DNA from: Schmidtea polychroa
Lineage: Eukaryota
Assembly (NCBI GenBank): GCA_044892525.1
Contig: CM097885.1
Coordinates: 34,226,001-34,290,000, forward strand
Length of the DNA stretch: 64,000 nt
Reading direction: 5' to 3'
A model generated the notes under the pieces. It had not been told where the DNA came from and ran no database searches. It saw nothing but the letters and a program-made list of their open reading frames with translations. The position numbers and the translations under genes were made by a program. Shown here one piece after another: positions 1-59,900 of the stretch (position 1 is the stretch's first letter; each line of letters starts with the position of its first letter).

Positions 1-394
1 TATTTTTCGGGATTATTTCGACTCAGATGTTAATGTCAATTTTCTGATTAGTCCCTGGCTCTGATGATATCGCAGTCATCGGATGTTTTATCCGGCTTTG
101 AATATTGGAGTGTTCAATTACATCAGTTTTCACCAGTCATTCAACCTGCAATCTGTTTCCTGGGCTGATGTTGAGAATCTGAACCTTCAATACGCAGCAT
201 CGAAACAATATCCCTGCAATAGACAAAAAAAGCATATTTACATGTTTATAAATATATACAACTGCCTTTCTTTTGGAGGGTTCATCTAAAATTCTAAATA
301 TATACAAAGATATTTATACATATACATTGATATTTAAAAACCCGAGAATGACAATGCTTCTGAGATCTTAGAGCAATTTGTTATGGAGATTTTT

Positions 395-3300
395 CTAATT
401 AAGGTCTGCTAAAGTGCCAGTTTTGTGGTAGTACCACCGTCTGGCAGAATGTGTGATGTTACTTATCGTACATTCCTTCAGTAGACTGTTTATTTCTGTG
501 CGTTTAACTCCAATTTTTAAAAGGATTTCAGGAGTTGATGACGGAAAAGAACCCAAAGCTCCGATAATACAAGTGTCAAGTTCGACTTTGAAATCAGGTT
601 TGACAGCTTGTATTTCATTCTTAAGCGATTCGTATTTAATTAAATTTGAAGAGTCAACTAGTTGAAAGTTCTTGACAGAGTCGATAGGACATTTCATGTC
701 AACTAGAAAGATCTTCCTTTTCAACAAATCAGTGATCATTAAATCCACTCGTTCTTTGGAATTCGGAACAAGTGAACAGATATGATCTACTACAACAATC
801 AAGTTGGGATTTTTCATTAATCGATTAGTGATTAATTTCAGACAGTCATCATGTCGCTCTGAGGCAAGGGTCAGATGGACTTTACAAGATTGAATGACAT
901 GTGACATTGTCTCTTCCTCAGTTTGACAACGACGACAAAGTCTTTTACCACCTTTATTGTAAGGCTTCGCATTGACTGAGAGGGAGTTTGTGCGAGCTCT
1001 GTGTATGAAGTTCCAAGCAAATTCAGAGAGAGCACCACGAAAAATTGCGATGTTTATTTTAGGCGAAAGTCTGATTGCTGCAGCTATAATGTTGGAGTTA
1101 TGACTGTTCTCTCCTTTCAAAAGATAGGCATCGCAGAGTGCCATGTGCAAAACCTTAGACGTGGTTTGGCGTAAGTCAGAAGTGAGAATACACGTGCCAC
1201 GCATTGCTGTTGTAATATAAAGCGATGTTTCTTGCTTTGTTACAATAAATGCTATTGAGATTTTGTGATATTTTTCAAAAAATGCAATAGCAGTTCTGAC
1301 TCGCTGGAATCGAGTTTTCTTTCCAGAATGGCAAAGTTTGGATTGCTTACCATTGAGCCAGTCAAGACTCTCCTGTAGTGTAGGGTCTTTTATTCCGAGT
1401 CGAGGTCCAGTGACAAAGCTCAGAGAATCAGTGTTGATCTTTTTCGCAAAGTCACACTTCGATGTTAAGAGTCGAAAGAAATGTGTTATTGTCTGTGTGT
1501 GATATTCGTCAAGAAGGTCTACACAGTTTGCTCCTCCGTTTTCAGTTGAGTTGTAGAAATAACTTACTTCAGAGTGATTTGGCAAAAGTAACATTTTTCT
1601 GAGACAACTCCTCACTTGACTGGTGATGTTGACAGAACGATTACTATTGGCGCTTGGTTTTGAAAGAGCGCTAGTTTTAATTTCGCGAGTTCTAAAGGGA
1701 AAAATCAAACGTGAATGGACAAAGATCTTATAAGCTTTAAGTTTTTGCCATCCAAGTAGGTCAGAGTCGGCAAGTTTTTTCGTGTCAGATACGACCTTCT
1801 CAAGAATGTCATATGGATTCTGATCAGTCTCTTCACCAACAAGCACTCCAAGATACTGATAAAATTCATTAGGTTGTAATTTTTTGATTTTAATGCTGTC
1901 AATCGAAATTTCACTATCTATTTCAAGGTTTGGCAATTGAAGATATGCACACTTTTCAGGGCGATATTCAAAGCCAATTTCAGCTGCAGTTGCTACAGCT
2001 ATATCGGTGATTTTCTGAAGTTCTTCAACAGACTTTGTAACTAAAGCTATGTCATCTGCATATGCAAGGATCTTAATTGGAGATTTCCCAATCCTGAAAG
2101 GTCTACAATCGGATCGCGATACAGCTTCAAGTACTGGATTAATGGCCAAAGCAAACAATATCATCGATATTGGACATCCTTGTTTGACACCTTGTTTAAT
2201 AGGGATGTTTGGTGTCAGAATATTACCACAGCTGTAAAAGGTACTTGTGTTGGAATATAACATCTGGATGATGGATGCAAATTCCTCGCTTACTCCAATG
2301 AATCGGAGTAAGGACCACATGTATTCATGGGGAACACTACCAAAGGCATCTTTTATATCAAGCCAAGCAATTGCAAGAGGCTTATTTACGCTGTATTTTG
2401 AGTGTTCTAGTGCAGCAGAAAGAATTGAATTATGCTCAACACATCCATCATGTTGTGAGCCACCTTTTTGACCGATATGTAAAAGATCATTCGAGTTTAT
2501 CCAACTTGTCAGACGACTAGCTAAACAAGATGCGAAAACCTTGTAAATGACAGAAAGTAAGGAAATTGGACGCCAAGACGAGACGTCATCATATTTTCCA
2601 TCTTTATCCGGCTTAGGAGTTAGAAGTGTTTTGAAGGTCTTCCAACTGTCTGGTATGGTCTTGTTTAAAATGATTTTATTGTACAAGAAAGTAAGCAATT
2701 TACCCTCGGGATCAAGAGACAACAAGTCACGATATTGTATTCCATCAATACCAGGACTTGTGTTCTCAGCTTTCTTTAGTTCGATAAGTACTTCATCACA
2801 TGTGAGCAAAATTAAACGAAGTTTAATTTGGGAACGTTTACAGAATTCAAATATTTTATCCCATGATTTTTCTAAAGGGGTTTTGTGCATGAAATTCATG
2901 ACAATATTTTGAAATTTTGGCATCACTGTGATATTTGTATTGTTGAAGATTTTATTGACTGTTGACTTCATATCAGTCATGAATTTTGCGATTAATTTAC
3001 CCTTGTTGATTTTTGAAGGTAATTTCTTTTTATTTCCCAAGTATGGTTTATGAGTTGATTTTAATTTGTCAGGGAATTGCTCAATGATAACGTCAATGAT
3101 TTCGTTTACATTGAAATCTGTCACTCTCCTCAGTAGTTCTAATGCTCTGAGTTTACGCAATTCTAAATTTGCATTCCCCTCTTTATTTTTGTTACTGTTT
3201 GTTGGTCTTACAGTCTTTTTCCTATTAAAATCATTTACAATTGGGATAAATGAGCTGACGACATTACCAATTTCGTGTAAGTTCAAATTTGTAAGAGGTA

Positions 3301-4999
3301 AGTCTTTAGCATAGTTTTGGATGAACGCGCATATCAGGATTTGACTAACTAGACCTGATCCTCGAGTGTCATGAGGACAATTACCAGTATATAATACACG
3401 GCCAGGTGATTCTCTGATTTCATTAATTTTGTTCCTAAGAATTTTGCAGGTAGGAAGATAACTTTCATTACCACTCAGTGTCGTCGGATTTAGAAGATAG
3501 TGCTCATCAGTTTGGTAATCAATGATAAACAAGATTTCCCTTGATTTTTCTGGTGCTACGATAGTAAATATGACTTGTGCCTTGATCAACGATTCACAAT
3601 CTAAAAATTCATTTAAATATCTAGTGCAATCGTCAAGAATCGCAGTGCACATTGTAGCATTTAAAAACATGAACTTTGTGGGTAAGTTTAATTTATGAAT
3701 GTATTTTGATGTGATTTCATCATTAATTTTACAGTTAATTAAGTTTAAATTCCTGGAGATCTCGTTTGTTTGTTGTATTTTATAAGATTTAAGGGAGTCA
3801 CTGATACTTCTACGACAAACCTGATTGTCAAAAAGTAATTTTTCGACCAATTCAATGACAGCAGAAGCAAATATATCTGGGTCAACAGATGTGATGGAAA
3901 TGTGGTCGATGTTGTGGAGACTATTGAAGTTGATCTTCGTTTGAGAAAGGAAAAATTTATTCATATAGTCTGTCATGTTTTCTCCTATGCCGATTAGTCT
4001 CTCAGTTAGAACTCTGTTGTTAAAGTTGAAAATGTAACTGATTCCTAAAACGAAAGAGAAAAGATACAGACTCCAATTCGTGTCGTCTGGAATGACGCTG
4101 ATGACATGTTCTATTCCAGCAAATTGTTTAAACGTGACATTTTCCCTGATGAATATATCGTTTTGTGCAATAATATTCAATGTCAGTTCATGAGAAAGAA
4201 CAGTAATATTGCTTTTATCTTTATACCATTCACTAATCAGGTATGTGATACATGAGCTCTGTTTCTGGAGATACATCAGGTTACCATTCCTCACCTTCTT
4301 AACTCCATTCCGTTTGATTGTCTCCATGAATTTTGGAAGGCCACCCCCCGAAGTTTTGGGATCTTTTTGTTGTTGAGTAAGTTTAAACTGGTGGACCTCT
4401 TTCCTGATAGTTTCGATGAAGCAGCCCGACAAGCTCTGCCATTCTCCACAAATCATCATGGCATATGCGCAGATGTATGGCCCACAATCATAGCTATTAT
4501 TTTGATATAAAAGGTTATTATGAGGATGAAAAGTCATGGCTGCTTTAAGGTCAAACAATTCATTCAGAGCCATTGTGATCTTAAGAGCAATTGTTTTATT
4601 CGTAAAACTATGCCGATTTAGAAGGATTGGATCGATGAAGTAAGAAATTAGGGAAGATTTACAATAAACGAACAAGATCCAATGAGATTTGTTGATGTTA
4701 AGGGGGCATAATATTACTTGTGCTTTCAAGACTCTTTCCGGAATTGGGAAAGTGTCATTCTCGAGGTTAGAGCACAAAATCTCAACGATAAAACATTTGA
4801 TATACGCAAATTCTGGGTTGATGATGTGATTTTCGAGAAAATTATCAATATCATCATCAGTGAACCAGATCTTTGGGTCGCGTTTTACCATCAAATTTTT
4901 ATTATTATTTATGATGTCGTGATGTTTATTAGAATTTTTTGTGCTGTCTGCATCAGTCTCCTTAGAGATTGGGGCAGATGTTGAGACTGATGCAGGCAC
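395..4999 (-). CDS. Retrotransposon polyprotein: Ulp1/C48-like protease, reverse transcriptase, CCHC zinc knuckle, restriction-like endonuclease
   Basis: Uninterrupted 1534-codon ORF. RT motifs SPGIDG, WRPISLL, WLDIKDAFGSVPH, GVKQGCPIS, LAYADD, YQYLG; C-terminal CRRC-x7-H-x4-C, RHD, RVD..DMK..KY. The called start is GTG two codons after an in-frame TGA; the first in-frame ATG is at 4891. Confidence 0.95.
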   Translation of the reverse strand: MPASVSTSAPISKETDADSTKNSNKHHDIINNNKNLMVKRDPKIWFTDDDIDNFLENHIINPEFAYIKCFIVEILCSNLENDTFPIPERVLKAQVILCPLNINKSHWILFVYCKSSLISYFIDPILLNRHSFTNKTIALKITMALNELFDLKAAMTFHPHNNLLYQNNSYDCGPYICAYAMMICGEWQSLSGCFIETIRKEVHQFKLTQQQKDPKTSGGGLPKFMETIKRNGVKKVRNGNLMYLQKQSSCITYLISEWYKDKSNITVLSHELTLNIIAQNDIFIRENVTFKQFAGIEHVISVIPDDTNWSLYLFSFVLGISYIFNFNNRVLTERLIGIGENMTDYMNKFFLSQTKINFNSLHNIDHISITSVDPDIFASAVIELVEKLLFDNQVCRRSISDSLKSYKIQQTNEISRNLNLINCKINDEITSKYIHKLNLPTKFMFLNATMCTAILDDCTRYLNEFLDCESLIKAQVIFTIVAPEKSREILFIIDYQTDEHYLLNPTTLSGNESYLPTCKILRNKINEIRESPGRVLYTGNCPHDTRGSGLVSQILICAFIQNYAKDLPLTNLNLHEIGNVVSSFIPIVNDFNRKKTVRPTNSNKNKEGNANLELRKLRALELLRRVTDFNVNEIIDVIIEQFPDKLKSTHKPYLGNKKKLPSKINKGKLIAKFMTDMKSTVNKIFNNTNITVMPKFQNIVMNFMHKTPLEKSWDKIFEFCKRSQIKLRLILLTCDEVLIELKKAENTSPGIDGIQYRDLLSLDPEGKLLTFLYNKIILNKTIPDSWKTFKTLLTPKPDKDGKYDDVSSWRPISLLSVIYKVFASCLASRLTSWINSNDLLHIGQKGGSQHDGCVEHNSILSAALEHSKYSVNKPLAIAWLDIKDAFGSVPHEYMWSLLRFIGVSEEFASIIQMLYSNTSTFYSCGNILTPNIPIKQGVKQGCPISMILFALAINPVLEAVSRSDCRPFRIGKSPIKILAYADDIALVTKSVEELQKITDIAVATAAEIGFEYRPEKCAYLQLPNLEIDSEISIDSIKIKKLQPNEFYQYLGVLVGEETDQNPYDILEKVVSDTKKLADSDLLGWQKLKAYKIFVHSRLIFPFRTREIKTSALSKPSANSNRSVNITSQVRSCLRKMLLLPNHSEVSYFYNSTENGGANCVDLLDEYHTQTITHFFRLLTSKCDFAKKINTDSLSFVTGPRLGIKDPTLQESLDWLNGKQSKLCHSGKKTRFQRVRTAIAFFEKYHKISIAFIVTKQETSLYITTAMRGTCILTSDLRQTTSKVLHMALCDAYLLKGENSHNSNIIAAAIRLSPKINIAIFRGALSEFAWNFIHRARTNSLSVNAKPYNKGGKRLCRRCQTEEETMSHVIQSCKVHLTLASERHDDCLKLITNRLMKNPNLIVVVDHICSLVPNSKERVDLMITDLLKRKIFLVDMKCPIDSVKNFQLVDSSNLIKYESLKNEIQAVKPDFKVELDTCIIGALGSFPSSTPEILLKIGVKRTEINSLLKECTISNITHSARRWYYHKTGTLADLN
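480..937 (-). other. CCHC zinc knuckle plus PD-(D/E)xK restriction-like endonuclease
   Basis: CRRCQTEEETMSHVIQSC (884-937), RHD (~848-856), R-V-D (Asp 743-745; the usual Pro is Val), D-M-K (692-700), then KY and IIGALG as in R2/NeSL/R4 C-termini. Confidence 0.85.
1840..2800 (-). other. Non-LTR reverse transcriptase domain
   Basis: YADD encoded at 2051-2062; the other conserved RT blocks are present in the expected order. Confidence 0.95.
4385..4870 (-). other. Ulp1/SENP-like (peptidase C48, clan CE) cysteine protease domain, catalytic residues intact
   Basis: WFTDDDIDNFL start motif; ILCPLNINKSHWILF (His codon 4682-4684); YFIDP (Asp); QNNSYDCGPYIC (Gln; Cys codon 4484-4486). Confidence 0.88.
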
Positions 5000-5005
5000 G
5001 CACCT

Positions 5006-7123
5006 TCATTTAATCTTGGAGACTACTTTCCTCGTTTTCCTACTTGGTCTTGTTAGTAGGTCCTCCTGTTGATCACAACTGGAAATTGCGGGAGTAGATG
5101 GGATTATATCCAAATCAACAGGCAGCTGTCGTTTCAGAGTCGCATGTTCTTGTAGATCACCCTCCAGAATGTCGTTAATCTCTATGGGTCGAGATGGCTC
5201 TTTCACAGCTGTTTCCACCGAGTTATCTAATCCAGGTGTGTTTCTCCTCTGCTCACCATTACTTTCAATCACAGATGTCAAGAGGACATCAAGCATGTCT
5301 GTGATAATGCAAGTCATATTTGGTGTGCAAATTTTCCTACAATGCTTAGGTATACGGTAGGAGAATTTACTGTTAGATAAAAATTTCTTTTTGTCTCTAA
5401 TGATAAAAAAGAGAAATCTTTTAGCTTTTATCATCTCTTCTTCGGATGTACCTAATTCCATTTCATTAATGTTGCGGCCCAAATTCTCAAGAACCTTAAG
5501 TTGGGCAGCCTTTTGTGGACAGATTTCATCAATTTTGTCAAGAAAGGAATTGATTTTATAGATGGTTTCTGGAGAGATAATGTTGTGTATTCTATCGATC
5601 TCCTCTGACAGTTTCCACTGTCGAAGTTTTAGTAGTCTTTCCTGACAACTAGAAGAGTAGTATGAAAGACTGGGGATCATATTAATCATCTCCGGACCCC
5701 AATTTTCGATGTTGTCGCACCTTAATGTATTGCAATTTTCAATTTTAGTAATTGAGTGCATCAAAAAACAATTACGTAAATAGTTTTTAACGTACTCATC
5801 AAATGTAGGATTTGAAATGTGTATTATGGTGCCTTTTAAATTTAAATAGTTGATATAATATATTATGTCAACCAGTTTAGATGGGGAGTTTGGCTGAGTC
5901 AGAAGAGAGTTAAGTATGGGGTCATCTTCTGACATTTTAACAAAATTAACCAATCCCAGGTTGAACATTATATCAGACGCATTTTCAGAATGTGGGACTT
6001 TAGGAATTTCAGTAATTTTATTAGTTTTAATAAATTTGCCCTTCACAAACGAGATCTCATTAGGGAAATTTTTTTCTAATTTTAAATCATTAATTAATTT
6101 AGTTAATAAATCAGGATTCTTATTTATATTCTCAGAAAAATATAATTCCTGAATTTCAGGAAACGATTTATATAACTCTTTCAACTGTGATCGCGAAAGT
6201 TCTAAGGTTTGAAGACTGGTGTTCTCATTACCAGAGTCACAGCTATTGAAAAGATCTAACAAGATAAAATCACCTTCAGAAAATGTTATCTGTGATCTTA
6301 TCAGGAAATCAGGAAGTTCACGTCGTTGTTTCATTCCATTCAAGATGTTATTTGTCTGTGCCGCTCTTTGATTTATATTTTTGATGGTAGCCGTCTCTGC
6401 GAGCTTATGTGAGAGGGAATACAAAAATCTTTTAATTACAGAGGATGCAGGGATAAAACTATCAACATATTTGTTAGTTTTAACAATATTTGAATCTATT
6501 AGCGAAATTTTCAATGCACTAGAAGTCTTTATCTCGATCGGGGCTTTCGCTTTATAGTTCAATTTATGGGAAACGCATATGTTGTGGTTTCTGTAAAAGA
6601 AATGTGAAAAATCCACGATCGACAAAGGATTATCATTTCCAGATATAGAAGCTAATTCTTTATTTATTGTTTGAAATTTATTCAGAGTTTCCCGAGACTT
6701 AATTAATTTACCTAATTTTGGAAAAAGTTTTATCAAATTTATTTTCTCCGTCCTTGAAAGAGTTCTTACATAAGAATGGAAAATTGAATTTGAGTATTTT
6801 TTGTTATTAATCAAATTTTTGCTTTTAAAATATTTTGTATTTTGATACATTTTATTTTTCAAAAGGCCTTTGTTTTCTTTAGCCAAAAAATTTGAATCGT
6901 TTTTTTCAACTTTAATTATATTTAATTTTGATTTGTTTAAGTTATTTAATTTAATATTAGATAACATTTGTTCTTCAAATTTAGGTAAATAAAATTCTAC
7001 TTTTCGAATTTTATTATTAACAGTTATTTTTAATTTAGGTTCCAGATCTCCACATGCCTGAGCCTGATGTTCAAGAGAAGGGCCACTCCGGGTAACCGAA
7101 TGGGAACTCGATTTTTTTTTTTT
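5006..7123 (-). CDS. Upstream retrotransposon ORF of unknown function, in frame with the RT ORF
   Basis: 653 aa from ATG 6967. Manual translation shows the frame stays open upstream to 7123, inside the A14 tract. It ends at TGA 5006-5008, followed in frame by AGG TGC GTG CCT into the RT ORF. Confidence 0.75.
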   Translation of the reverse strand, partial: KKKKSSSHSVTRSGPSLEHQAQACGDLEPKLKITVNNKIRKVEFYLPKFEEQMLSNIKLNNLNKSKLNIIKVEKNDSNFLAKENKGLLKNKMYQNTKYFKSKNLINNKKYSNSIFHSYVRTLSRTEKINLIKLFPKLGKLIKSRETLNKFQTINKELASISGNDNPLSIVDFSHFFYRNHNICVSHKLNYKAKAPIEIKTSSALKISLIDSNIVKTNKYVDSFIPASSVIKRFLYSLSHKLAETATIKNINQRAAQTNNILNGMKQRRELPDFLIRSQITFSEGDFILLDLFNSCDSGNENTSLQTLELSRSQLKELYKSFPEIQELYFSENINKNPDLLTKLINDLKLEKNFPNEISFVKGKFIKTNKITEIPKVPHSENASDIMFNLGLVNFVKMSEDDPILNSLLTQPNSPSKLVDIIYYINYLNLKGTIIHISNPTFDEYVKNYLRNCFLMHSITKIENCNTLRCDNIENWGPEMINMIPSLSYYSSSCQERLLKLRQWKLSEEIDRIHNIISPETIYKINSFLDKIDEICPQKAAQLKVLENLGRNINEMELGTSEEEMIKAKRFLFFIIRDKKKFLSNSKFSYRIPKHCRKICTPNMTCIITDMLDVLLTSVIESNGEQRRNTPGLDNSVETAVKEPSRPIEINDILEGDLQEHATLKRQLPVDLDIIPSTPAISSCDQQEDLLTRPSRKTRKVVSKIK

Positions 7124-7610
7124 TTAAAAATAAATTTTTATTTAAATTTTTTACTTCATTTCTAGTTAAGTAATTAGTATAATTAGGATCATTATTATCA
7201 TTATATATATATGTTCTAGATCCAGCATTTAAGGGTTTATTTATAATTTTAGGTTTAATTATATTTAAAGACTTTGAATTATTTCTTAATTTAGTAATAT
7301 AAGAAATTTTTTTATTTAATTTATGTTTTTGATTTTGAAAATCATTTACTTTATTTTGATAAGAATTATATCTATCAGAATGAAATCCATTACTAAAATT
7401 GTTTTTAAATTCATTATCTTTTACAAAATTATTTAAAAGAGAAGCATTGGCATTCTCAGGTTTTAAACTGTAATCTAGATTTATATAGTTCAAAAATAAA
7501 TCAATCTTACGTTTAATTTCCAGAAATCCATCCTCAATCGAAAACATCCTCCTTGACAAGTCCAAAAGGCCATCTTCCACGGAAATCAGTCCAGAATCTA
7601 ATCTAGGCAT
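7071..7610 (-). CDS. 5'-most retrotransposon ORF segment (coiled-coil-like N-terminus, Asn/Lys-rich), probably fused to the next ORF across the A14 tract
   Basis: ORF track gives 7071..7658. ATG 7610 (MPRLDSG) is the start retained in the inverted copy. Overlaps the next open frame between 7071 and 7123. Confidence 0.6.
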   Translation of the reverse strand: MPRLDSGLISVEDGLLDLSRRMFSIEDGFLEIKRKIDLFLNYINLDYSLKPENANASLLNNFVKDNEFKNNFSNGFHSDRYNSYQNKVNDFQNQKHKLNKKISYITKLRNNSKSLNIIKPKIINKPLNAGSRTYIYNDNNDPNYTNYLTRNEVKNLNKNLFLKKKKIEFPFGYPEWPFS

Positions 7611-8044
7611 ATTTTCATTTGAACGTTGTGCATATAAATAGTTTTTGTCGATATCCATTTGTTAAGATTAACAATCAATTTGCTACTTATAGATTGAAAG
7701 TAGTTATAATAATTTCAAATTTTCGTCTGTCACAAAATATGCCTAGATTAGATTCTGGACTGATTTCCATGGAAGATGGCCTTTTGGACTTGTCAAGTAG
7801 GATGTTTTCTATTGAGGATGGATATCTGGAAATTAAACGTAAGATTGATTTATTTTTGAACTATATAAATCTAGATTACAGTTTAAAACCTGAGAATGCC
7901 AATGCTTCTCTTTTAAATAATTTTGTAAAAGATAATGAATTTAAAAACAATTTTAGTAATGGATTTCATTCTGATAGATATAATTCTTATCAAAATAAAG
8001 TAAATGATTTTCAAAATCAAAAACATAAATTAAATAAAAAAATT
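7305..8044. repeat. Long inverted repeat: arms 7305-7615 and 7734-8044 (311 bp, 4 mismatches), 118-bp spacer
   Basis: Base-by-base comparison; paired positions sum to 15349. Both arms translate as MPRLDSGLIS...HKLNKKI on opposite strands. Confidence 0.97.
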
Positions 8045-8114
8045 CATTATCATTTGAATTCAGATCAATATAATATTTCAATTTCAATATTTGACAAGTG
8101 ACATAAATTTTTTC

Positions 8115-8119
8115 AAAAA
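8115..8119 (-). terminator. RNA polymerase III terminator (T5) after tRNA-Phe, present in each unit
   Basis: Minus strand reads ...GGCA-ATTAAA-TTTTT-G: five T starting 7 nt downstream of the discriminator base. Confidence 0.75.
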
Positions 8120-8125
8120 TTTAAT

Positions 8126-8198
8126 TGCCGCGAACCGGGATCGAACCAGTGACCTTTAGATCTTCAGTCTAACGCTCTCCCAACTGAGCTATCGCGGC
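8126..8198 (-). tRNA. tRNA-Phe-GAA: tRNA-Phe(GAA), first copy of the array (repeats every 255 bp)
   Basis: GCCGCGATAGCTCAGTTGGGAGAGCGTTAGACTGAAGATCTAAAGGTCACTGGTTCGATCCCGGTTCGCGGCA: 73 nt; perfect acceptor stem GCCGCGA/TCGCGGC; anticodon loop CTGAAGA; T-loop TTCGATC; intact A and B boxes; no intron; no encoded CCA. Confidence 0.98.
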
Positions 8199-11100
8199 TT
8201 ATTTACAATAACAGACATCAGCTCATCACTGGTAAATTCCACTAGAGCTTTATTTTCAAATTTTCATCAAACACCAATCTTATTTCCAACGTTCAAATTC
8301 ATTATCATTTGAATTCAGATCAATATAATATTTCAATTTCAATATTTGACAAGTGACATAAATTTTTTCAAAAATTTAATTGCCGCGAACCGGGATCGAA
8401 CCAGTGACCTTTAGATCTTCAGTCTAACGCTCTCCCAACTGAGCTATCGCGGCTTATTTACAATAACAGACATCAGCTCATCACTGGTAAATTCCACTAG
8501 AGCTTTATTTTCAAATTTTCATCAAACACCAATCTTATTTCCAACGTTCAAATTCATTATCATTTGAATTCAGATCAATATAATATTTCAATTTCAATAT
8601 TTGACAAGTGACATAAATTTTTTCAAAAATTTAATTGCCGCGAACCGGGATCGAACCAGTGACCTTTAGATCTTCAGTCTAACGCTCTCCCAACTGAGCT
8701 ATCGCGGCTTATTTACAATAACAGACATCAGCTCATCACTGGTAAATTCCACTAGAGCTTTATTTTCAAATTTTCATCAAACACCAATCTTATTTCCAAC
8801 GTTCAAATTCATTATCATTTGAATTCAGATCAATATAATATTTCAATTTCAATATTTGACAAGTGACATAAATTTTTTCAAAAATTTAATTGCCGCGAAC
8901 CGGGATCGAACCAGTGACCTTTAGATCTTCAGTCTAACGCTCTCCCAACTGAGCTATCGCGGCTTATTTACAATAACAGACATCAGCTCATCACTGGTAA
9001 ATTCCACTAGAGCTTTATTTTCAAATTTTCATCAAACACCAATCTTATTTCCAACGTTCAAATTCATTATCATTTGAATTCAGATCAATATAATATTTCA
9101 ATTTCAATATTTGACAAGTGACATAAATTTTTTCAAAAATTTAATTGCCGCGAACCGGGATCGAACCAGTGACCTTTAGATCTTCAGTCTAACGCTCTCC
9201 CAACTGAGCTATCGCGGCTTATTTACAATAACAGACATCAGCTCATCACTGGTAAATTCCACTAGAGCTTTATTTTCAAATTTTCATCAAACACCAATCT
9301 TATTTCCAACGTTCAAATTCATTATCATTTGAATTCAGATCAATATAATATTTCAATTTCAATATTTGACAAGTGACATAAATTTTTTCAAAAATTTAAT
9401 TGCCGCGAACCGGGATCGAACCAGTGACCTTTAGATCTTCAGTCTAACGCTCTCCCAACTGAGCTATCGCGGCTTATTTACAATAACAGACATCAGCTCA
9501 TCACTGGTAAATTCCACTAGAGCTTTATTTTCAAATTTTCATCAAACACCAATCTTATTTCCAACGTTCAAATTCATTATCATTTGAATTCAGATCAATA
9601 TAATATTTCAATTTCAATATTTGACAAGTGACATAAATTTTTTCAAAAATTTAATTGCCGCGAACCGGGATCGAACCAGTGACCTTTAGATCTTCAGTCT
9701 AACGCTCTCCCAACTGAGCTATCGCGGCTTATTTACAATAACAGACATCAGCTCATCACTGGTAAATTCCACTAGAGCTTTATTTTCAAATTTTCATCAA
9801 ACACCAATCTTATTTCCAACGTTCAAATTCATTATCATTTGAATTCAGATCAATATAATATTTCAATTTCAATATTTGACAAGTGACATAAATTTTTTCA
9901 AAAATTTAATTGCCGCGAACCGGGATCGAACCAGTGACCTTTAGATCTTCAGTCTAACGCTCTCCCAACTGAGCTATCGCGGCTTATTTACAATAACAGA
10001 CATCAGCTCATCACTGGTAAATTCCACTAGAGCTTTATTTTCAAATTTTCATCAAACACCAATCTTATTTCCAACGTTCAAATTCATTATCATTTGAATT
10101 CAGATCAATATAATATTTCAATTTCAATATTTGACAAGTGACATAAATTTTTTCAAAAATTTAATTGCCGCGAACCGGGATCGAACCAGTGACCTTTAGA
10201 TCTTCAGTCTAACGCTCTCCCAACTGAGCTATCGCGGCTTATTTACAATAACAGACATCAGCTCATCACTGGTAAATTCCACTAGAGCTTTATTTTCAAA
10301 TTTTCATCAAACACCAATCTTATTTCCAACGTTCAAATTCATTATCATTTGAATTCAGATCAATATAATATTTCAATTTCAATATTTGACAAGTGACATA
10401 AATTTTTTCAAAAATTTAATTGCCGCGAACCGGGATCGAACCAGTGACCTTTAGATCTTCAGTCTAACGCTCTCCCAACTGAGCTATCGCGGCTTATTTA
10501 CAATAACAGACATCAGCTCATCACTGGTAAATTCCACTAGAGCTTTATTTTCAAATTTTCATCAAACACCAATCTTATTTCCAACGTTCAAATTCATTAT
10601 CATTTGAATTCAGATCAATATAATATTTCAATTTCAATATTTGACAAGTGACATAAATTTTTTCAAAAATTTAATTGCCGCGAACCGGGATCGAACCAGT
10701 GACCTTTAGATCTTCAGTCTAACGCTCTCCCAACTGAGCTATCGCGGCTTATTTACAATAACAGACATCAGCTCATCACTGGTAAATTCCACTAGAGCTT
10801 TATTTTCAAATTTTCATCAAACACCAATCTTATTTCCAACGTTCAAATTCATTATCATTTGAATTCAGATCAATATAATATTTCAATTTCAATATTTGAC
10901 AAGTGACATAAATTTTTTCAAAAATTTAATTGCCGCGAACCGGGATCGAACCAGTGACCTTTAGATCTTCAGTCTAACGCTCTCCCAACTGAGCTATCGC
11001 GGCTTATTTACAATAACAGACATCAGCTCATCACTGGTAAATTCCACTAGAGCTTTATTTTCAAATTTTCATCAAACACCAATCTTATTTCCAACGTTCA

Positions 11101-17100: not shown

Positions 17101-20100
17101 TCTCCCAACTGAGCTATCGCGGCTTATTTACAATAACAGACATCAGCTCATCACTGGTAAATTCCACTAGAGCTTTATTTTCAAATTTTCATCAAACACC
17201 AATCTTATTTCCAACGTTCAAATTCATTATCATTTGAATTCAGATCAATATAATATTTCAATTTCAATATTTGACAAGTGACATAAATTTTTTCAAAAAT
17301 TTAATTGCCGCGAACCGGGATCGAACCAGTGACCTTTAGATCTTCAGTCTAACGCTCTCCCAACTGAGCTATCGCGGCTTATTTACAATAACAGACATCA
17401 GCTCATCACTGGTAAATTCCACTAGAGCTTTATTTTCAAATTTTCATCAAACACCAATCTTATTTCCAACGTTCAAATTCATTATCATTTGAATTCAGAT
17501 CAATATAATATTTCAATTTCAATATTTGACAAGTGACATAAATTTTTTCAAAAATTTAATTGCCGCGAACCGGGATCGAACCAGTGACCTTTAGATCTTC
17601 AGTCTAACGCTCTCCCAACTGAGCTATCGCGGCTTATTTACAATAACAGACATCAGCTCATCACTGGTAAATTCCACTAGAGCTTTATTTTCAAATTTTC
17701 ATCAAACACCAATCTTATTTCCAACGTTCAAATTCATTATCATTTGAATTCAGATCAATATAATATTTCAATTTCAATATTTGACAAGTGACATAAATTT
17801 TTTCAAAAATTTAATTGCCGCGAACCGGGATCGAACCAGTGACCTTTAGATCTTCAGTCTAACGCTCTCCCAACTGAGCTATCGCGGCTTATTTACAATA
17901 ACAGACATCAGCTCATCACTGGTAAATTCCACTAGAGCTTTATTTTCAAATTTTCATCAAACACCAATCTTATTTCCAACGTTCAAATTCATTATCATTT
18001 GAATTCAGATCAATATAATATTTCAATTTCAATATTTGACAAGTGACATAAATTTTTTCAAAAATTTAATTGCCGCGAACCGGGATCGAACCAGTGACCT
18101 TTAGATCTTCAGTCTAACGCTCTCCCAACTGAGCTATCGCGGCTTATTTACAATAACAGACATCAGCTCATCACTGGTAAATTCCACTAGAGCTTTATTT
18201 TCAAATTTTCATCAAACACCAATCTTATTTCCAACGTTCAAATTCATTATCATTTGAATTCAGATCAATATAATATTTCAATTTCAATATTTGACAAGTG
18301 ACATAAATTTTTTCAAAAATTTAATTGCCGCGAACCGGGATCGAACCAGTGACCTTTAGATCTTCAGTCTAACGCTCTCCCAACTGAGCTATCGCGGCTT
18401 ATTTACAATAACAGACATCAGCTCATCACTGGTAAATTCCACTAGAGCTTTATTTTCAAATTTTCATCAAACACCAATCTTATTTCCAACGTTCAAATTC
18501 ATTATCATTTGAATTCAGATCAATATAATATTTCAATTTCAATATTTGACAAGTGACATAAATTTTTTCAAAAATTTAATTGCCGCGAACCGGGATCGAA
18601 CTAGTGACCTTTAGATCTTCAGTCTAACGCTCTCCCAACTGAGCTATCGCGGCTTATTTACAATAACAGACATCAGCTCATCACTGGTAAATTCCACTAG
18701 AGCTTTATTTTCAAATTTTCATCAAACACCAATCTTATTTCCAACGTTCAAATTCATTATCATTTGAATTCAGATCAATATAATATTTCAATTTCAATAT
18801 TTGACAAGTGACATAAATTTTTTCAAAAATTTAATTGCCGCGAACCGGGATCGAACCAGTGACCTTTAGATCTTCAGTCTAACGCTCTCCCAACTGAGCT
18901 ATCGCGGCTTATTTACAATAACAGACATCAGCTCATCACTGGTAAATTCCACTAGAGCTTTATTTTCAAATTTTCATCAAACACCAATCTTATTTCCAAC
19001 GTTCAAATTCATTATCATTTGAATTCAGATCAATATAATATTTCAATTTCAATATTTGACAAGTGACATAAATTTTTTCAAAAATTTAATTGCCGCGAAC
19101 CGGGATCGAACCAGTGACCTTTAGATCTTCAGTCTAACGCTCTCCCAACTGAGCTATCGCGGCTTATTTACAATAACAGACATCAGCTCATCACTGGTAA
19201 ATTCCACTAGAGCTTTATTTTCAAATTTTCATCAAACACCAATCTTATTTCCAACGTTCAAATTCATTATCATTTGAATTCAGATCAATATAATATTTCA
19301 ATTTCAATATTTGACAAGTGACATAAATTTTTTCAAAAATTTAATTGCCGCGAACCGGGATCGAACCAGTGACCTTTAGATCTTCAGTCTAACGCTCTCC
19401 CAACTGAGCTATCGCGGCTTATTTACAATAACAGACATCAGCTCATCACTGGTAAATTCCACTAGAGCTTTATTTTCAAATTTTCATCAAACACCAATCT
19501 TATTTCCAACGTTCAAATTCATTATCATTTGAATTCAGATCAATATAATATTTCAATTTCAATATTTGACAAGTGACATAAATTTTTTCAAAAATTTAAT
19601 TGCCGCGAACCGGGATCGAACCAGTGACCTTTAGATCTTCAGTCTAACGCTCTCCCAACTGAGCTATCGCGGCTTATTTACAATAACAGACATCAGCTCA
19701 TCACTGGTAAATTCCACTAGAGCTTTATTTTCAAATTTTCATCAAACACCAATCTTATTTCCAACGTTCAAATTCATTATCATTTGAATTCAGATCAATA
19801 TAATATTTCAATTTCAATATTTGACAAGTGACATAAATTTTTTCAAAAATTTAATTGCCGCGAACCGGGATCGAACCAGTGACCTTTAGATCTTCAGTCT
19901 AACGCTCTCCCAACTGAGCTATCGCGGCTTATTTACAATAACAGACATCAGCTCATCACTGGTAAATTCCACTAGAGCTTTATTTTCAAATTTTCATCAA
20001 ACACCAATCTTATTTCCAACGTTCAAATTCATTATCATTTGAATTCAGATCAATATAATATTTCAATTTCAATATTTGACAAGTGACATAAATTTTTTCA

Positions 20101-53100: not shown

Positions 53101-56100
53101 GCTCATCACTGGTAAATTCCACTAGAGCTTTATTTTCAAATTTTCATCAAACACCAATCTTATTTCCAACGTTCAAATTCATTATCATTTGAATTCAGAT
53201 CAATATAATATTTCAATTTCAATATTTGACAAGTGACATAAATTTTTTCAAAAATTTAATTGCCGCGAACCGGGATCGAACCAGTGACCTTTAGATCTTC
53301 AGTCTAACGCTCTCCCAACTGAGCTATCGCGGCTTATTTACAATAACAGACATCAGCTCATCACTGGTAAATTCCACTAGAGCTTTATTTTCAAATTTTC
53401 ATCAAACACCAATCTTATTTCCAACGTTCAAATTCATTATCATTTGAATTCAGATCAATATAATATTTCAATTTCAATATTTGACAAGTGACATAAATTT
53501 TTTCAAAAATTTAATTGCCGCGAACCGGGATCGAACCAGTGACCTTTAGATCTTCAGTCTAACGCTCTCCCAACTGAGCTATCGCGGCTTATTTACAATA
53601 ACAGACATCAGCTCATCACTGGTAAATTCCACTAGAGCTTTATTTTCAAATTTTCATCAAACACCAATCTTATTTCCAACGTTCAAATTCATTATCATTT
53701 GAATTCAGATCAATATAATATTTCAATTTCAATATTTGACAAGTGACATAAATTTTTTCAAAATTTAATTGCCGCGAACCGGGATCGAACCAGTGACCTT
53801 TAGATCTTCAGTCTAACGCTCTCCCAACTGAGCTATCGCGGCTTATTTACAATAACAGACATCAGCTCATCACTGGTAAATTCCACTAGAGCTTTATTTT
53901 CAAATTTTCATCAAACACCAATCTTATTTCCAACGTTCAAATTCATTATCATTTGAATTCAGATCAATATAATATTTCAATTTCAATATTTGACAAGTGA
54001 CATAAATTTTTTCAAAAATTTAATTGCCGCGAACCGGGATCGAACCAGTGACCTTTAGATCTTCAGTCTAACGCTCTCCCAACTGAGCTATCGCGGCTTA
54101 TTTACAATAACAGACATCAGCTCATCACTGGTAAATTCCACTAGAGCTTTATTTTCAAATTTTCATCAAACACCAATCTTATTTCCAACGTTCAAATTCA
54201 TTATCATTTGAATTCAGATCAATATAATATTTCAATTTCAATATTTGACAAGTGACATAAATTTTTTCAAAAATTTAATTGCCGCGAACCGGGATCGAAC
54301 CAGTGACCTTTAGATCTTCAGTCTAACGCTCTCCCAACTGAGCTATCGCGGCTTATTTACAATAACAGACATCAGCTCATCACTGGTAAATTCCACTAGA
54401 GCTTTATTTTCAAATTTTCATCAAACACCAATCTTATTTCCAACGTTCAAATTCATTATCATTTGAATTCAGATCAATATAATATTTCAATTTCAATATT
54501 TGACAAGTGACATAAATTTTTTCAAAAATTTAATTGCCGCGAACCGGGATCGAACCAGTGACCTTTAGATCTTCAGTCTAACGCTCTCCCAACTGAGCTA
54601 TCGCGGCTTATTTACAATAACAGACATCAGCTCATCACTGGTAAATTCCACTAGAGCTTTATTTTCAAATTTTCATCAAACACCAATCTTATTTCAACGT
54701 TCAAATTTCATTAGCATTTGAATTCAGATCAATATAATATTTCAATTTCAATAGTTGACAAGTGAATCCAAGTGACATAAATTTTTTCAAAAATTTAATT
54801 GCCGCGAACCGGGATCGAACCAGTGACCTTTAGATCTTCAGTCTAACGCTCTCCCAACTGAGCTATCGCGGCTTATTTACAATAACAGACATCAGCTCAT
54901 CACTGGTAAATTCCACTAGAGCTTTATTTTCAAATTTTCATCAAACACCAATCTTATTTCCAACGTTCAAATTCATTATCATTTGAATTCAGATCAATAT
55001 AATATTTCAATTTCAATATTTGACAAGTGACATAAATTTTTTCAAAAATTTAATTGCCGCGAACCGGGATCGAACCAGTGACCTTTAGATCTTCAGTCTA
55101 ACGCTCTCCCAACTGAGCTATCGCGGCTTATTTACAATAACAGACATCAGCTCATCACTGGTAAATTCCACTAGAGCTTTATTTCAAATTTTCATCAAAC
55201 ACCAATCTTATTTCCAACGTTCAAATTCATTATCATTTGAATTCAGATCAATATAATATTTCAATTTCAATATTTGACAAGTGACATAAATTTTTTCAAA
55301 AATTTAATTGCCGCGAACCGGGATCGAACCAGTGACCTTTAGATCTTCAGTCTAACGCTCTCCCAACTGAGCTATCGCGGCTTATTTACAATAACAGACA
55401 TCAGCTCATCACTGGTAAATTCCACTAGAGCTTTATTTTCAAATTTTCATCAAACACCAATCTTATTTCCAACGTTCAAATTCATTATCATTTGAATTCA
55501 GATCAATATAATATTTCAATTCAATATTTGACAAGTGACATAAATTTTTTCAAAAATTTAATTGCCGCGAACCGGGATCGAACCAGTGACCTTTAGATCT
55601 TCAGTCTAACGCTCTCCCAACTGAGCTATCGCGGCTTATTTACAATAACAGACATCAGCTCATCACTGGTAAATTCCACTAGAGCTTTATTTTCAAATTT
55701 TCATCAAACACCAATCTTATTTCCAACGTTCAAATTCATTATCATTTGAATTCAGATCAATATAATATTTCAATTTCAATATTTGACAAGTGACATAAAT
55801 TTTTTCAAAAATTTAATTGCCGCGAACCGGGATCGAACCAGTGACCTTTAGATCTTCAGTCTAACGCTCTCCCAACTGAGCTATCGCGGCTTATTTACAA
55901 TAACAGACATCAGCTCATCACTGGTAAATTCCACTAGAGCTTTATTTTCAAATTTTCATCAAACACCCAATCTTATTTCCAACGTTCAAATTCATTATCA
56001 TTTGAATTCAGATCAATATAATATTTCAATTTCAATATTTGACAAGTGACATAAATTTTTTCAAAAATTTAATTGCCGCGAACCGGGATCGAACCAGTGA

Positions 56101-56852
56101 CCTTTAGATCTTCAGTCTAACGCTCTCCCAACTGAGCTATCGCGGCTTATTTACAATAACAGACATCAGCTCATCACTGTTAAATTCCACTAGAGCTTAT
56201 TTTCAAATTTTCATCAAACACCCAATCTTATTTCCAACGTTCAAAATTCATTATCATTTGAATTCAGATCAATATAATATTTCAATTTCAATATTTGACA
56301 AGTGACATAATTTTTTTCAAAAATTTAATTGCCGCGAACCGGGATCGAACCAGTGACCTTTAGATCTTCAGTCTAACGCTCTCCGCCAAACTGAGCTATC
56401 GCGGCTGATTTACAAATACAAGACATCAGCTCATCACTGGTAAATTCCACTAGAGCTTTATTTTCAAATTTTCATCAAACACCAATCTTATTTCCAACGT
56501 TCAATTCATTATCATTTGAATTCAGATCAATATAATATTTCAATTTCAATATTTTGACAAGTGACATAAATTTTTTCAAAAATTTAATTGCCGCGAACCG
56601 GGATCCGAACCAGTGACCTTTAGATCTTCCAGGTCTAACGCTCTCCCCAACTGAGCTATCGCGGCATGTAGTTTACAATAACAGACATCAGCTCCTCACT
56701 GGTAATTTCCACTAGAGCTTATTTTTCAAATTTTACATCAACACCATCTTATTTCCAACGTTACACAATTCCATTATCATTTGAATTCAGATCAATATAA
56801 TATTTCACTTTCAATATTTTGGCAGGTGACATAAATTTTTTCAAAATTTAAT

Positions 56853-56908
56853 TGCCGCGAAACCTTTAGATCTTCAGTCTAACGCTCTCCCAACTGAGCT
56901 ATCGCGGC
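56853..56908 (-). pseudogene. tRNA-Phe copy lacking the T-arm/B-box (17-bp deletion); may be an assembly join artefact
   Basis: Reads gccgcgaa|acctttaga instead of gccgcgaa-ccgggatcgaaccagtg-acctttaga; sits at the abrupt end of an error-rich tract. Confidence 0.5.
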
Positions 56909-59900
56909 TTATTTACAATAACAGACATCAGCTCATCACTGGTAAATTCCACTAGAGCTTTATTTTCAAATTTTCATCAAACACCAATCTTATTTCCAAC
57001 GTTCAAATTCATTATCATTTGAATTCAGATCAATATAATATTTCAATTTCAATATTTGACAAGTGACATAAATTTTTTCAAAAATTTAATTGCCGCGAAC
57101 CGGGATCGAACCAGTGACCTTTAGATCTTCAGTCTAACGCTCTCCCAACTGAGCTATCGCGGCTTATTTACAATAACAGACATCAGCTCATCACTGGTAA
57201 ATTCCACTAGAGCTTTATTTTCAAATTTTCATCAAACACCAATCTTATTTCCAACGTTCAAATTCATTATCATTTGAATTCAGATCAATATAATATTTCA
57301 ATTTCAATATTTGACAAGTGACATAAATTTTTTCAAAAATTTAATTGCCGCGAACCGGGATCGAACCAGTGACCTTTAGATCTTCAGTCTAACGCTCTCC
57401 CAACTGAGCTATCGCGGCTTATTTACAATAACAGACATCAGCTCATCACTGGTAAATTCCACTAGAGCTTTATTTTCAAATTTTCATCAAACACCAATCT
57501 TATTTCCAACGTTCAAATTCATTATCATTTGAATTCAGATCAATATAATATTTCAATTTCAATATTTGACAAGTGACATAAATTTTTTCAAAAATTTAAT
57601 TGCCGCGAACCGGGATCGAACCAGTGACCTTTAGATCTTCAGTCTAACGCTCTCCCAACTGAGCTATCGCGGCTTATTTACAATAACAGACATCAGCTCA
57701 TCACTGGTAAATTCCACTAGAGCTTTATTTTCAAATTTTCATCAAACACCAATCTTATTTCCAACGTTCAAATTCATTATCATTTGAATTCAGATCAATA
57801 TAATATTTCAATTTCAATATTTGACAAGTGACATAAATTTTTTCAAAAATTTAATTGCCGCGAACCGGGATCGAACCAGTGACCTTTAGATCTTCAGTCT
57901 AACGCTCTCCCAACTGAGCTATCGCGGCTTATTTACAATAACAGACATCAGCTCATCACTGGTAAATTCCACTAGAGCTTTATTTTCAAATTTTCATCAA
58001 ACACCAATCTTATTTCCAACGTTCAAATTCATTATCATTTGAATTCAGATCAATATAATATTTCAATTTCAATATTTGACAAGTGACATAAATTTTTTCA
58101 AAAATTTAATTGCCGCGAACCGGGATCGAACCAGTGACCTTTAGATCTTCAGTCTAACGCTCTCCCAACTGAGCTATCGCGGCTTATTTACAATAACAGA
58201 CATCAGCTCATCACTGGTAAATTCCACTAGAGCTTTATTTTCAAATTTTCATCAAACACCAATCTTATTTCCAACGTTCAAATTCATTATCATTTGAATT
58301 CAGATCAATATAATATTTCAATTTCAATATTTGACAAGTGACATAAATTTTTTCAAAAATTTAATTGCCGCGAACCGGGATCGAACCAGTGACCTTTAGA
58401 TCTTCAGTCTAACGCTCTCCCAACTGAGCTATCGCGGCTTATTTACAATAACAGACATCAGCTCATCACTGGTAAATTCCACTAGAGCTTTATTTTCAAA
58501 TTTTCATCAAACACCAATCTTATTTCCAACGTTCAAATTCATTATCATTTGAATTCAGATCAATATAATATTTCAATTTCAATATTTGACAAGTGACATA
58601 AATTTTTTCAAAAATTTAATTGCCGCGAACCGGGATCGAACCAGTGACCTTTAGATCTTCAGTCTAACGCTCTCCCAACTGAGCTATCGCGGCTTATTTA
58701 CAATAACAGACATCAGCTCATCACTGGTAAATTCCACTAGAGCTTTATTTTCAAATTTTCATCAAACACCAATCTTATTTCCAACGTTCAAATTCATTAT
58801 CATTTGAATTCAGATCAATATAATATTTCAATTTCAATATTTGACAAGTGACATAAATTTTTTCAAAAATTTAATTGCCGCGAACCGGGATCGAACCAGT
58901 GACCTTTAGATCTTCAGTCTAACGCTCTCCCAACTGAGCTATCGCGGCTTATTTACAATAACAGACATCAGCTCATCACTGGTAAATTCCACTAGAGCTT
59001 TATTTTCAAATTTTCATCAAACACCAATCTTATTTCCAACGTTCAAATTCATTATCATTTGAATTCAGATCAATATAATATTTCAATTTCAATATTTGAC
59101 AAGTGACATAAATTTTTTCAAAAATTTAATTGCCGCGAACCGGGATCGAACCAGTGACCTTTAGATCTTCAGTCTAACGCTCTCCCAACTGAGCTATCGC
59201 GGCTTATTTACAATAACAGACATCAGCTCATCACTGGTAAATTCCACTAGAGCTTTATTTTCAAATTTTCATCAAACACCAATCTTATTTCCAACGTTCA
59301 AATTCATTATCATTTGAATTCAGATCAATATAATATTTCAATTTCAATATTTGACAAGTGACATAAATTTTTTCAAAAATTTAATTGCCGCGAACCGGGA
59401 TCGAACCAGTGACCTTTAGATCTTCAGTCTAACGCTCTCCCAACTGAGCTATCGCGGCTTATTTACAATAACAGACATCAGCTCATCACTGGTAAATTCC
59501 ACTAGAGCTTTATTTTCAAATTTTCATCAAACACCAATCTTATTTCCAACGTTCAAATTCATTATCATTTGAATTCAGATCAATATAATATTTCAATTTC
59601 AATATTTGACAAGTGACATAAATTTTTTCAAAAATTTAATTGCCGCGAACCGGGATCGAACCAGTGACCTTTAGATCTTCAGTCTAACGCTCTCCCAACT
59701 GAGCTATCGCGGCTTATTTACAATAACAGACATCAGCTCATCACTGGTAAATTCCACTAGAGCTTTATTTTCAAATTTTCATCAAACACCAATCTTATTT
59801 CCAACGTTCAAATTCATTATCATTTGAATTCAGATCAATATAATATTTCAATTTCAATATTTGACAAGTGACATAAATTTTTTCAAAAATTTAATTGCCG

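Follow-up and report, generated by a model that had tools for sequence, protein, structure and literature searches.

A possible snap-back 5′ junction of a predicted NeSL-type retrotransposon at a tRNA-Phe array of Schmidtea polychroa, with diverged target-like DNA in its spacer

The way in which site-specific retrotransposons attach their 5′ ends to the target is still partly open, and it matters for gene insertion based on R2. For R2 proteins, a snap-back is described in the accessible part of PMC11371274 (Zhang et al. 2024), in which the 3′ end of the cDNA primes on the cDNA and the upstream target is thereby joined to antisense sequence. According to the same portion of that paper, this is most often templated by cDNA and, for one protein, takes place mostly after full-length cDNA. 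The class appears likewise in the available parts of PMC11331408 and PMC11204384. A stretch of 6-27 nt of upstream 28S is inferred for the RNAs of melanogaster-type R1 (PMC2718515, in excerpt), and diverged 28S-like 3′ UTRs are described for seven R2 families (PMC5035012, in excerpt). In Schmidtea mediterranea, LIN9_SM belongs to the R5/LIN lineage of the NeSL clade, and its junctions are given in S6 Fig of PMC4640811 (Kojima & Jurka 2015). Among the 12 rows for its 5′ end in that figure, a common diverged flank that resembles 28S is present in 8, 3 others are mixed or have one variant, and 1 is equal to 28S, by our own count, in which two accessions are repeated and for which a diverged rDNA paralogue is a possible source. 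By hand reading of the figure, the target-like flank of LIN9_SM appears to give an in-frame ATG and 14 codons to the first frame. Searches of the open-access literature that combined snap-back, cDNA, retrotransposon, junction and TPRT led to R2 only, among the matches listed. The open-access searches gave nothing on target-derived start codons, which is a weak negative, and nothing by title on NeSL leaders among the matches listed.

The locus described here lies in a window of 64,000 nt, by which we mean the whole stretch of DNA that was analysed. It consists of an element on the minus strand, in tRNA-gene sense, to the left of a tandem tRNA array. The main features, in window coordinates, are as follows.

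395-5005, minus strand: ORF2, 1536 codons from stop to stop, with predicted Ulp1-like protease, RT, CCHC zinc knuckle and restriction-like endonuclease
5006-7123, minus strand: 705-codon open frame ending in TGA, in frame with ORF2, without Pfam match
7071-7658, minus strand: first open frame of the element, starting at ATG 7658-7656 or ATG 7610-7608
7305-7615, minus strand: arm 1, the sense start of the coding region of the element
7616-7733, minus strand: 118-nt spacer, putatively both the fold-back loop and the 5′ leader of the element
7734-8044, plus strand: arm 2, an inverted 311-nt duplicate of arm 1 with 4 substitutions
8040-8044, plus strand: microhomology of exactly 5 nt between arm 2 and the array, with 9/11 positions matching out to 8050
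8040-64000, minus strand: tandem array of 219.4 units of 255 bp, each with one tRNA-Phe(GAA) gene that reads in the direction of the element
8292-8313: quasi-palindrome of every array unit, with 7-bp arms and an 8-nt centre, which spans the joint position

ORF2 has Pfam matches to PF00078 (E 1.2e-26) and PF02902 (E 1.7e-5, above its cut-off), and its profile finds R2 proteins best among PDB structures (E 2.9e-85), with Ulp1/SENP structures at 7e-9. Nine relatives of 1344-1541 aa share 35-51% identity with it, and C1357, C1360, H1369, C1374, R1384-H1385, D1421, D1436 and K1438 are invariant in all 10 of the aligned proteins. Of the criteria for the NeSL clade, ORF2 shows both the succession of RT, CCHC knuckle and PD..D/ExK-type endonuclease and the Ulp1-like protease, the latter by PF02902 and by the Ulp1/SENP structures, and its domain plan is that given for NeSL families in the accessible part of PMC4640811. 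By this domain plan the element is classed as a predicted NeSL-type non-LTR retrotransposon. Visual inspection of the alignment suggests further, decayed Ulp1-like repeats downstream of the first protease domain, within 3200-5005 (minus strand).

A homologue search and Pfam gave nothing for the 705-codon frame, which a lone TGA (5008-5006, minus strand) divides from ORF2 in the same frame. In most relatives the ORF2 call starts at a motif that lies three codons past the TGA, and here reads GTG, which suggests that readthrough or a non-AUG start may be conserved. Between the first frame and the 705-codon frame there is a one-base offset at an A14 run (7112-7125, element sense), for which a programmed shift, a mutation and a homopolymer error are alternatives. 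Homologue searches with the ORF1 region found no usable relative; one weak low-complexity match (E 6e-4) covers residues 75-115 and not the N-terminus.

At the other end of the element, a T7 run (224-230, minus strand) lies about 170 nt past the ORF2 stop and is followed by more GC-rich DNA. Since LIN24_SM and LIN26_SM end in T runs, the element might end there against non-array DNA. In the 394 nt after ORF2 the best target-like sequence scores 15.9 bits, which natural windows reach as well, and past ORF2 the window shows no array, and hence no 3′ junction with one. Relatives with DNA context come from 31 loci, all of them distant, with best segments 24-48% identical, and a tRNA was found at 0 of these 31 and an Rfam match at none of the 11 that were scanned. 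A search of sequencing runs with 400-8040 found part of it in 14 of the 22 runs listed, and 10 runs hold at least half of its words (6 studies), shares that are not placeable on the spacer. No RNA run holding 400-8040 was among the matches listed.

The array is near-uniform. All 218 tRNA genes called in it are on the minus strand and 217 are Phe(GAA), 205 of the 217 anchored units are identical, and the target stretch 8251-8313 has 213 exact copies within the window. Units at 18582, 23427 and 28017, spaced 19 and 18 units apart, have an identical single substitution, which is a trace of higher-order duplication in the array. At 53500-57100 one-base indels are scattered through the units, together with a 10-nt insert and a damaged tRNA call, and this region looks like weak assembly consensus.

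In element sense, the junction runs from the array into an antisense copy of the first 311 coding bases, and then through the 118-nt spacer into the full element. Both arms translate as the start of the first frame of the element, with ATGs at 7610-7608 and 7739-7741; they are coding, not UTRs, and correspond to the first 311 nt of that frame. The arms differ at 4/311 nt, all within the first 91 nt (chance 0.007), and three of the four differences alter an amino acid. Placed on the array unit, the joint falls in the intergenic spacer, inside the quasi-palindrome and 97-101 nt upstream of where the tRNA begins. Microhomology such as that at the joint is common, as 10 element sites score equally. 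Twin priming does not readily account for this arrangement. In that process both cDNAs come from one RNA, the inverted and sense parts should be different stretches of it, and a 311-nt stretch in both orientations around an intact loop, as found here, is not the usual product.

We consider that the locus is the 5′ junction of one NeSL-type insertion, with a folded-back cDNA and a spacer that represents a loop or leader with old, diverged, captured target DNA, and give this reading a probability of roughly 45%. An antisense copy of the element is fused to upstream target and the sense original is kept, the arrangement by which a snap-back is recognized, and by our analysis of the layout arm 2 would most likely have come from snap-back on cDNA. 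As arm 2 is a 311-nt copy of the frame start with a 5-nt joint, a single snap-back suffices and no second element is needed. The layout is that of an R2 snap-back 5′ junction, so the spacer is most likely one loop, the leader, and not two head-to-head leaders; because such a loop is the 3′ end of the cDNA, the spacer would be the leader of the RNA. At the presumed priming site a 4-bp pairing is possible, but folding gives this site no preference, with rank 4 of 16 T runs at 20 C and 8 of 16 at 37 C, a weak point of the snap-back reading.

Three patches in and beside the spacer resemble the array.

7617-7653, minus strand: patch M1, 26/37 to array plus strand 8262-8298 without gaps, with an exact 12-mer at 7617-7628
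7713-7736, plus strand: patch M2, 19/24 to array plus strand 8254-8277, with an exact 12-mer at 7713-7724
7611-7623, minus strand: patch M3, at the joint of leader and ORF, 12/13 to array minus strand 8313-8301

The coordinates bear out the original prediction that the minus strand of 7617-7628 is identical to array 8287-8298 and that plus-strand 7713-7736 matches 8254-8277 at 19/24, and for the gapless match over 7617-7653, put there at about 27/37, the extent is as described and the count is 26. Identity to the array is 70% for M1 and 79% for M2. In M3, 7 of the 13 matches follow from the quasi-palindrome of the target, and the other 5/6 have a chance of about 0.015. M1 sits within the N-terminal extension of the first frame. 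From the upstream ATG at 7658, an in-frame extension of 16 codons runs through M1; 4483/20000 shuffles give as long a one, which is chance level, and this ATG was therefore discarded as evidence.

M1 and M2 each lie immediately 5′ of an arm, resemble the plus strand of the array and stop where that arm begins, and M1 ends at the array position where arm 2 joins. These positions speak for an alternative in which the locus has two head-to-head 5′ ends and the boundary of the family is at the arm start. Two RNAs, from sub-lineages with their own target-like leaders, would have been copied from both sides of one break (or in two insertions), and one of them primed internally at nt 311. The 5′ clustering of the arm differences is like that in R1 sub-lineages with fast-diverging 5′ ends (PMC2718515, in excerpt). 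LIN9_SM, antisense to the host gene, also has a target-like flank up to the insertion site and an in-frame ATG 14 codons before the element (PMC4640811 S6 Fig, hand reading). However, such an origin requires a 3′-truncated retrocopy together with a full-length copy in the opposite orientation, and priming by R2 protein depends on a 3′ module of the RNA in the accessible part of PMC11371274. The two halves of the spacer are also not detectably related (693/1000 shuffles score as high), a result that likewise gives no support to the spacer as a decayed inverted repeat of itself, and with three of the four arm differences altering an amino acid there is no sign of a selected sister lineage. We regard two head-to-head ends as unlikely. 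The original prediction had placed target-like DNA before each of two head-to-head 5′ ends; the above-chance likeness to the array, on both strands, stands, and the second 5′ end is the less supported part. Against snap-back, arm 2 starts 1-3 nt from both patch ends and 5 nt before the ATG, which under snap-back is coincidence, and the clustering of the substitutions in the first 91 of 311 nt is not predicted by a single fresh copy unless synthesis was error-prone.

The likeness of the spacer to the array was compared with chance in several ways. In plain counts, with dinucleotide shuffles against the whole array unit, a 12-mer or longer arose in 160/5000 shuffles and two such 12-mers in 3/5000, while 26/37 or better was reached in 2/500 and 19/24 or better in 13/500; taken singly, each match is modest by these counts. 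A composition-aware ungapped score against the intergenic spacer, with 62 non-overlapping 121-nt element windows as controls, gave 21.3 and 20.0 bits, values reached by 10 and 22 of 3000 shuffles, and both strands together were matched by 0/3000 shuffles and by 0/62 natural windows (best 18.4 bits). A shuffle comparison was among the checks that the original prediction had named, and these put the matches above chance. In the gapped composition-aware version, 17, 31 and jointly 1 of 2000 shuffles did as well, and 0/64 windows. Anchored at the arm start and the array joint, a post-hoc test, the minus-strand match was equalled by 0/20000 shuffles; the plus-strand match is off the joint, with 7.0 bits when anchored, and stops 17 nt short of it. 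On either strand, the likeness of the spacer to the part of the array near the joint goes beyond chance, and the significance of M1 and M2 is carried by their position and pairing.

A third exact 12-mer, at 7407-7418 and again at 7931-7942, lies in the coding arm in antisense; it equals array 8295-8306, with which the array starts at the joint, and its 17.7 bits are a value that natural windows also reach. When a naive +2/-2 gapped score is used, the spacer (30/32) is equalled or exceeded by many AT-rich windows of the element, with values up to 45. A single 12-mer is thus weak evidence, and both observations would fit with matches that arose by chance in AT-rich DNA; the error-like array units at ~53.5-57 kb would similarly suit an inverted arm that is an assembly chimera from a fold-back read. 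The composition-aware and anchored tests argue against chance, and the 4 substitutions between the arms are unexpected from a chimera of one molecule, so we hold either artefact to be very improbable.

Beyond M2, the plus strand of 7659-7736 aligns colinearly with the tRNA 5′ flank 8199-8277 at 48/81 columns (0/3000 shuffles, driven by M2). This points to a possible origin of the spacer as host DNA, either a decayed edge unit of this array or the 5′ flank of another tRNA array that is paralogous and diverged, carried from a donor site or left in place. Yet the part left of M2 (from 7659 on, vs 8199-8253) is borderline, being equalled by 129-178/3000 shuffles and 35/508 AT-rich natural windows, and the opposite orientation of M1 is left unexplained. 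There is also no tRNA remnant in the spacer and no such diverged unit among the 217 array units, and host flank seems improbable to us. Since the patches are 70-79% identical and the array units are nearly all identical, the patches were not copied whole from the array recently.

Of the two origins offered by the original prediction, a paralogous array flank or a target-like leader, both stay the leading ones; the close comparison with the co-transcribed target of R2 found no support in the form proposed. A leader of the R2 type would be identical to the present upstream target, and here 26/37 and 19/24 positions match a target with 213 exact copies. Such a leader would also have a self-cleaving ribozyme at its 5′ end, and no Rfam ribozyme family was found in 1-8400 up to E 5, where a diverged type outside Rfam is possible. 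As a structured RNA or ribozyme the spacer was likewise rejected, with fold z values of 0.26 (RNA) and 0.20 (DNA), no better than shuffles. An open plus-strand frame through the spacer was dismissed as well, having no ATG and being matched by 824/20000 shuffles.

Past the exact core of M1, 14/25 positions match (128/20000 shuffles as good), as old homology would give, which favours a leader with captured target. That the likeness goes on, with mismatches, past the exact cores counts against a one-off repair insert, in which Pol theta-type synthesis would have laid down random bases and short target-copied patches from both strands before a snap-back, with the cDNA end at about 7616. For such an insert, both exact 12-mers derive from array positions no further than 45 nt from the joint, one per strand, and the cover of the spacer by array 10-mers or longer is 24 nt (2/3000 shuffles). 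In vitro, the tracts made by Pol theta mix random with templated bases and can be up to 138 nt long (accessible part of PMC4912351), and the clustered substitutions suit error-prone synthesis. However, 94/118 nt have no local template of at least 10 nt, and the two small hairpins are at chance level (503/3000 shuffles have two or more); overall, a repair insert appears quite improbable. A patchwork of local templates is also unsupported for the middle 84 nt, where there is no excess (526 and 2438 of 3000 shuffles reach the observed cover).

Under snap-back, the endonuclease would nick in or near the array and reverse transcription would run to about 7737, where the RNA has its 5′ end. Being only partly target-like, the cDNA 3′ end would not be annealed and extended there and would prime on the T run at 7612-7615 instead, from which a polymerase (host Pol theta or the RT) would copy to 7305, and the new end would be joined to the array at 8040-8044. 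The patches in the leader may be fossils of earlier junction events in the lineage; the quasi-palindromic target would explain why there is one patch per orientation, and M1 may by now be translated as N-terminal codons. With the element oriented like the tRNA genes, M1 is the antisense of the flank and is excluded as annealing homology, which leaves M2 or M3 as the patches that could anneal; the native orientation and the nick site decide which patch, if any, does so. Candidate nick sites are the middle of the quasi-palindrome near 8299/8300 for an element in tRNA sense, 8294/8295 for an antisense one, and a position within the tRNA gene as for LIN15/LIN25.

The finding is one junction, and the family-level claim is a candidate. 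That candidate is a family which cuts a quasi-palindromic site in the tRNA spacer, not in the gene, and builds its 5′ end from target captured in both orientations, which would supply the ORF1 start and first codons, as LIN9_SM appears to do; it is a doubtful proposition at present. If the snap-back reading is true, this would be a natural NeSL-type snap-back junction and the products of engineered R2 would occur in genomes too. A constant, diverged target-like leader, if true, would be a record of earlier targets and would indicate how elements lacking a ribozyme gain leaders, and perhaps start codons. With a family such as the candidate, target capture would be a recurring source of leaders and start codons in the lineage. 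The ingredients are each known; the open-access searches turned up no natural NeSL-type insertion that combines them at the spacer of a tRNA array, and absence there is weak evidence.

Among known systems, L1 twin priming is like this locus in its 5′-inverted segment and its microhomology to the target (PMC2912911 and PMC4245944, in excerpt). In R2 leaders that retain 28S and in melanogaster-type R1, upstream target at the RNA 5′ end can anneal and thereby fix the 5′ junction (PMC11331408 and PMC2718515, in the parts available). As far as those parts go, the leaders of R2 and R1 do not differ from the present target, and those of R2 are cut out by an HDV-like ribozyme, whereas here identity is 70-79% and there is no ribozyme match. 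LIN15_SM, LIN25_SM and NeSL-1_TV are, like this element, RLE elements at tRNA genes and in tRNA sense (PMC4640811 S6 Fig); their 3′ junctions are inside tRNA genes (PMC4640811), whereas the joint described here is 97-101 nt upstream of the gene, in the intergenic spacer. LIN9_SM shares with this locus a diverged target-like sequence directly 5′ of the element and apparently in frame, by our own reading of the figure text. It differs in having 28S rDNA as its target, a flank much closer to that target, many copies and one orientation only. R2 snap-back junctions have the same succession as this locus, with upstream target, antisense element copy, loop, sense 5′ end and short microhomology at the joint. 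Those junctions (PMC11371274; PMC11331408; PMC11204384) come from engineered insertions into 28S rDNA in human cells, whereas here a natural, Ulp1-bearing insertion of predicted NeSL type lies in a tRNA-array spacer and has a 311-nt arm with 4 substitutions.
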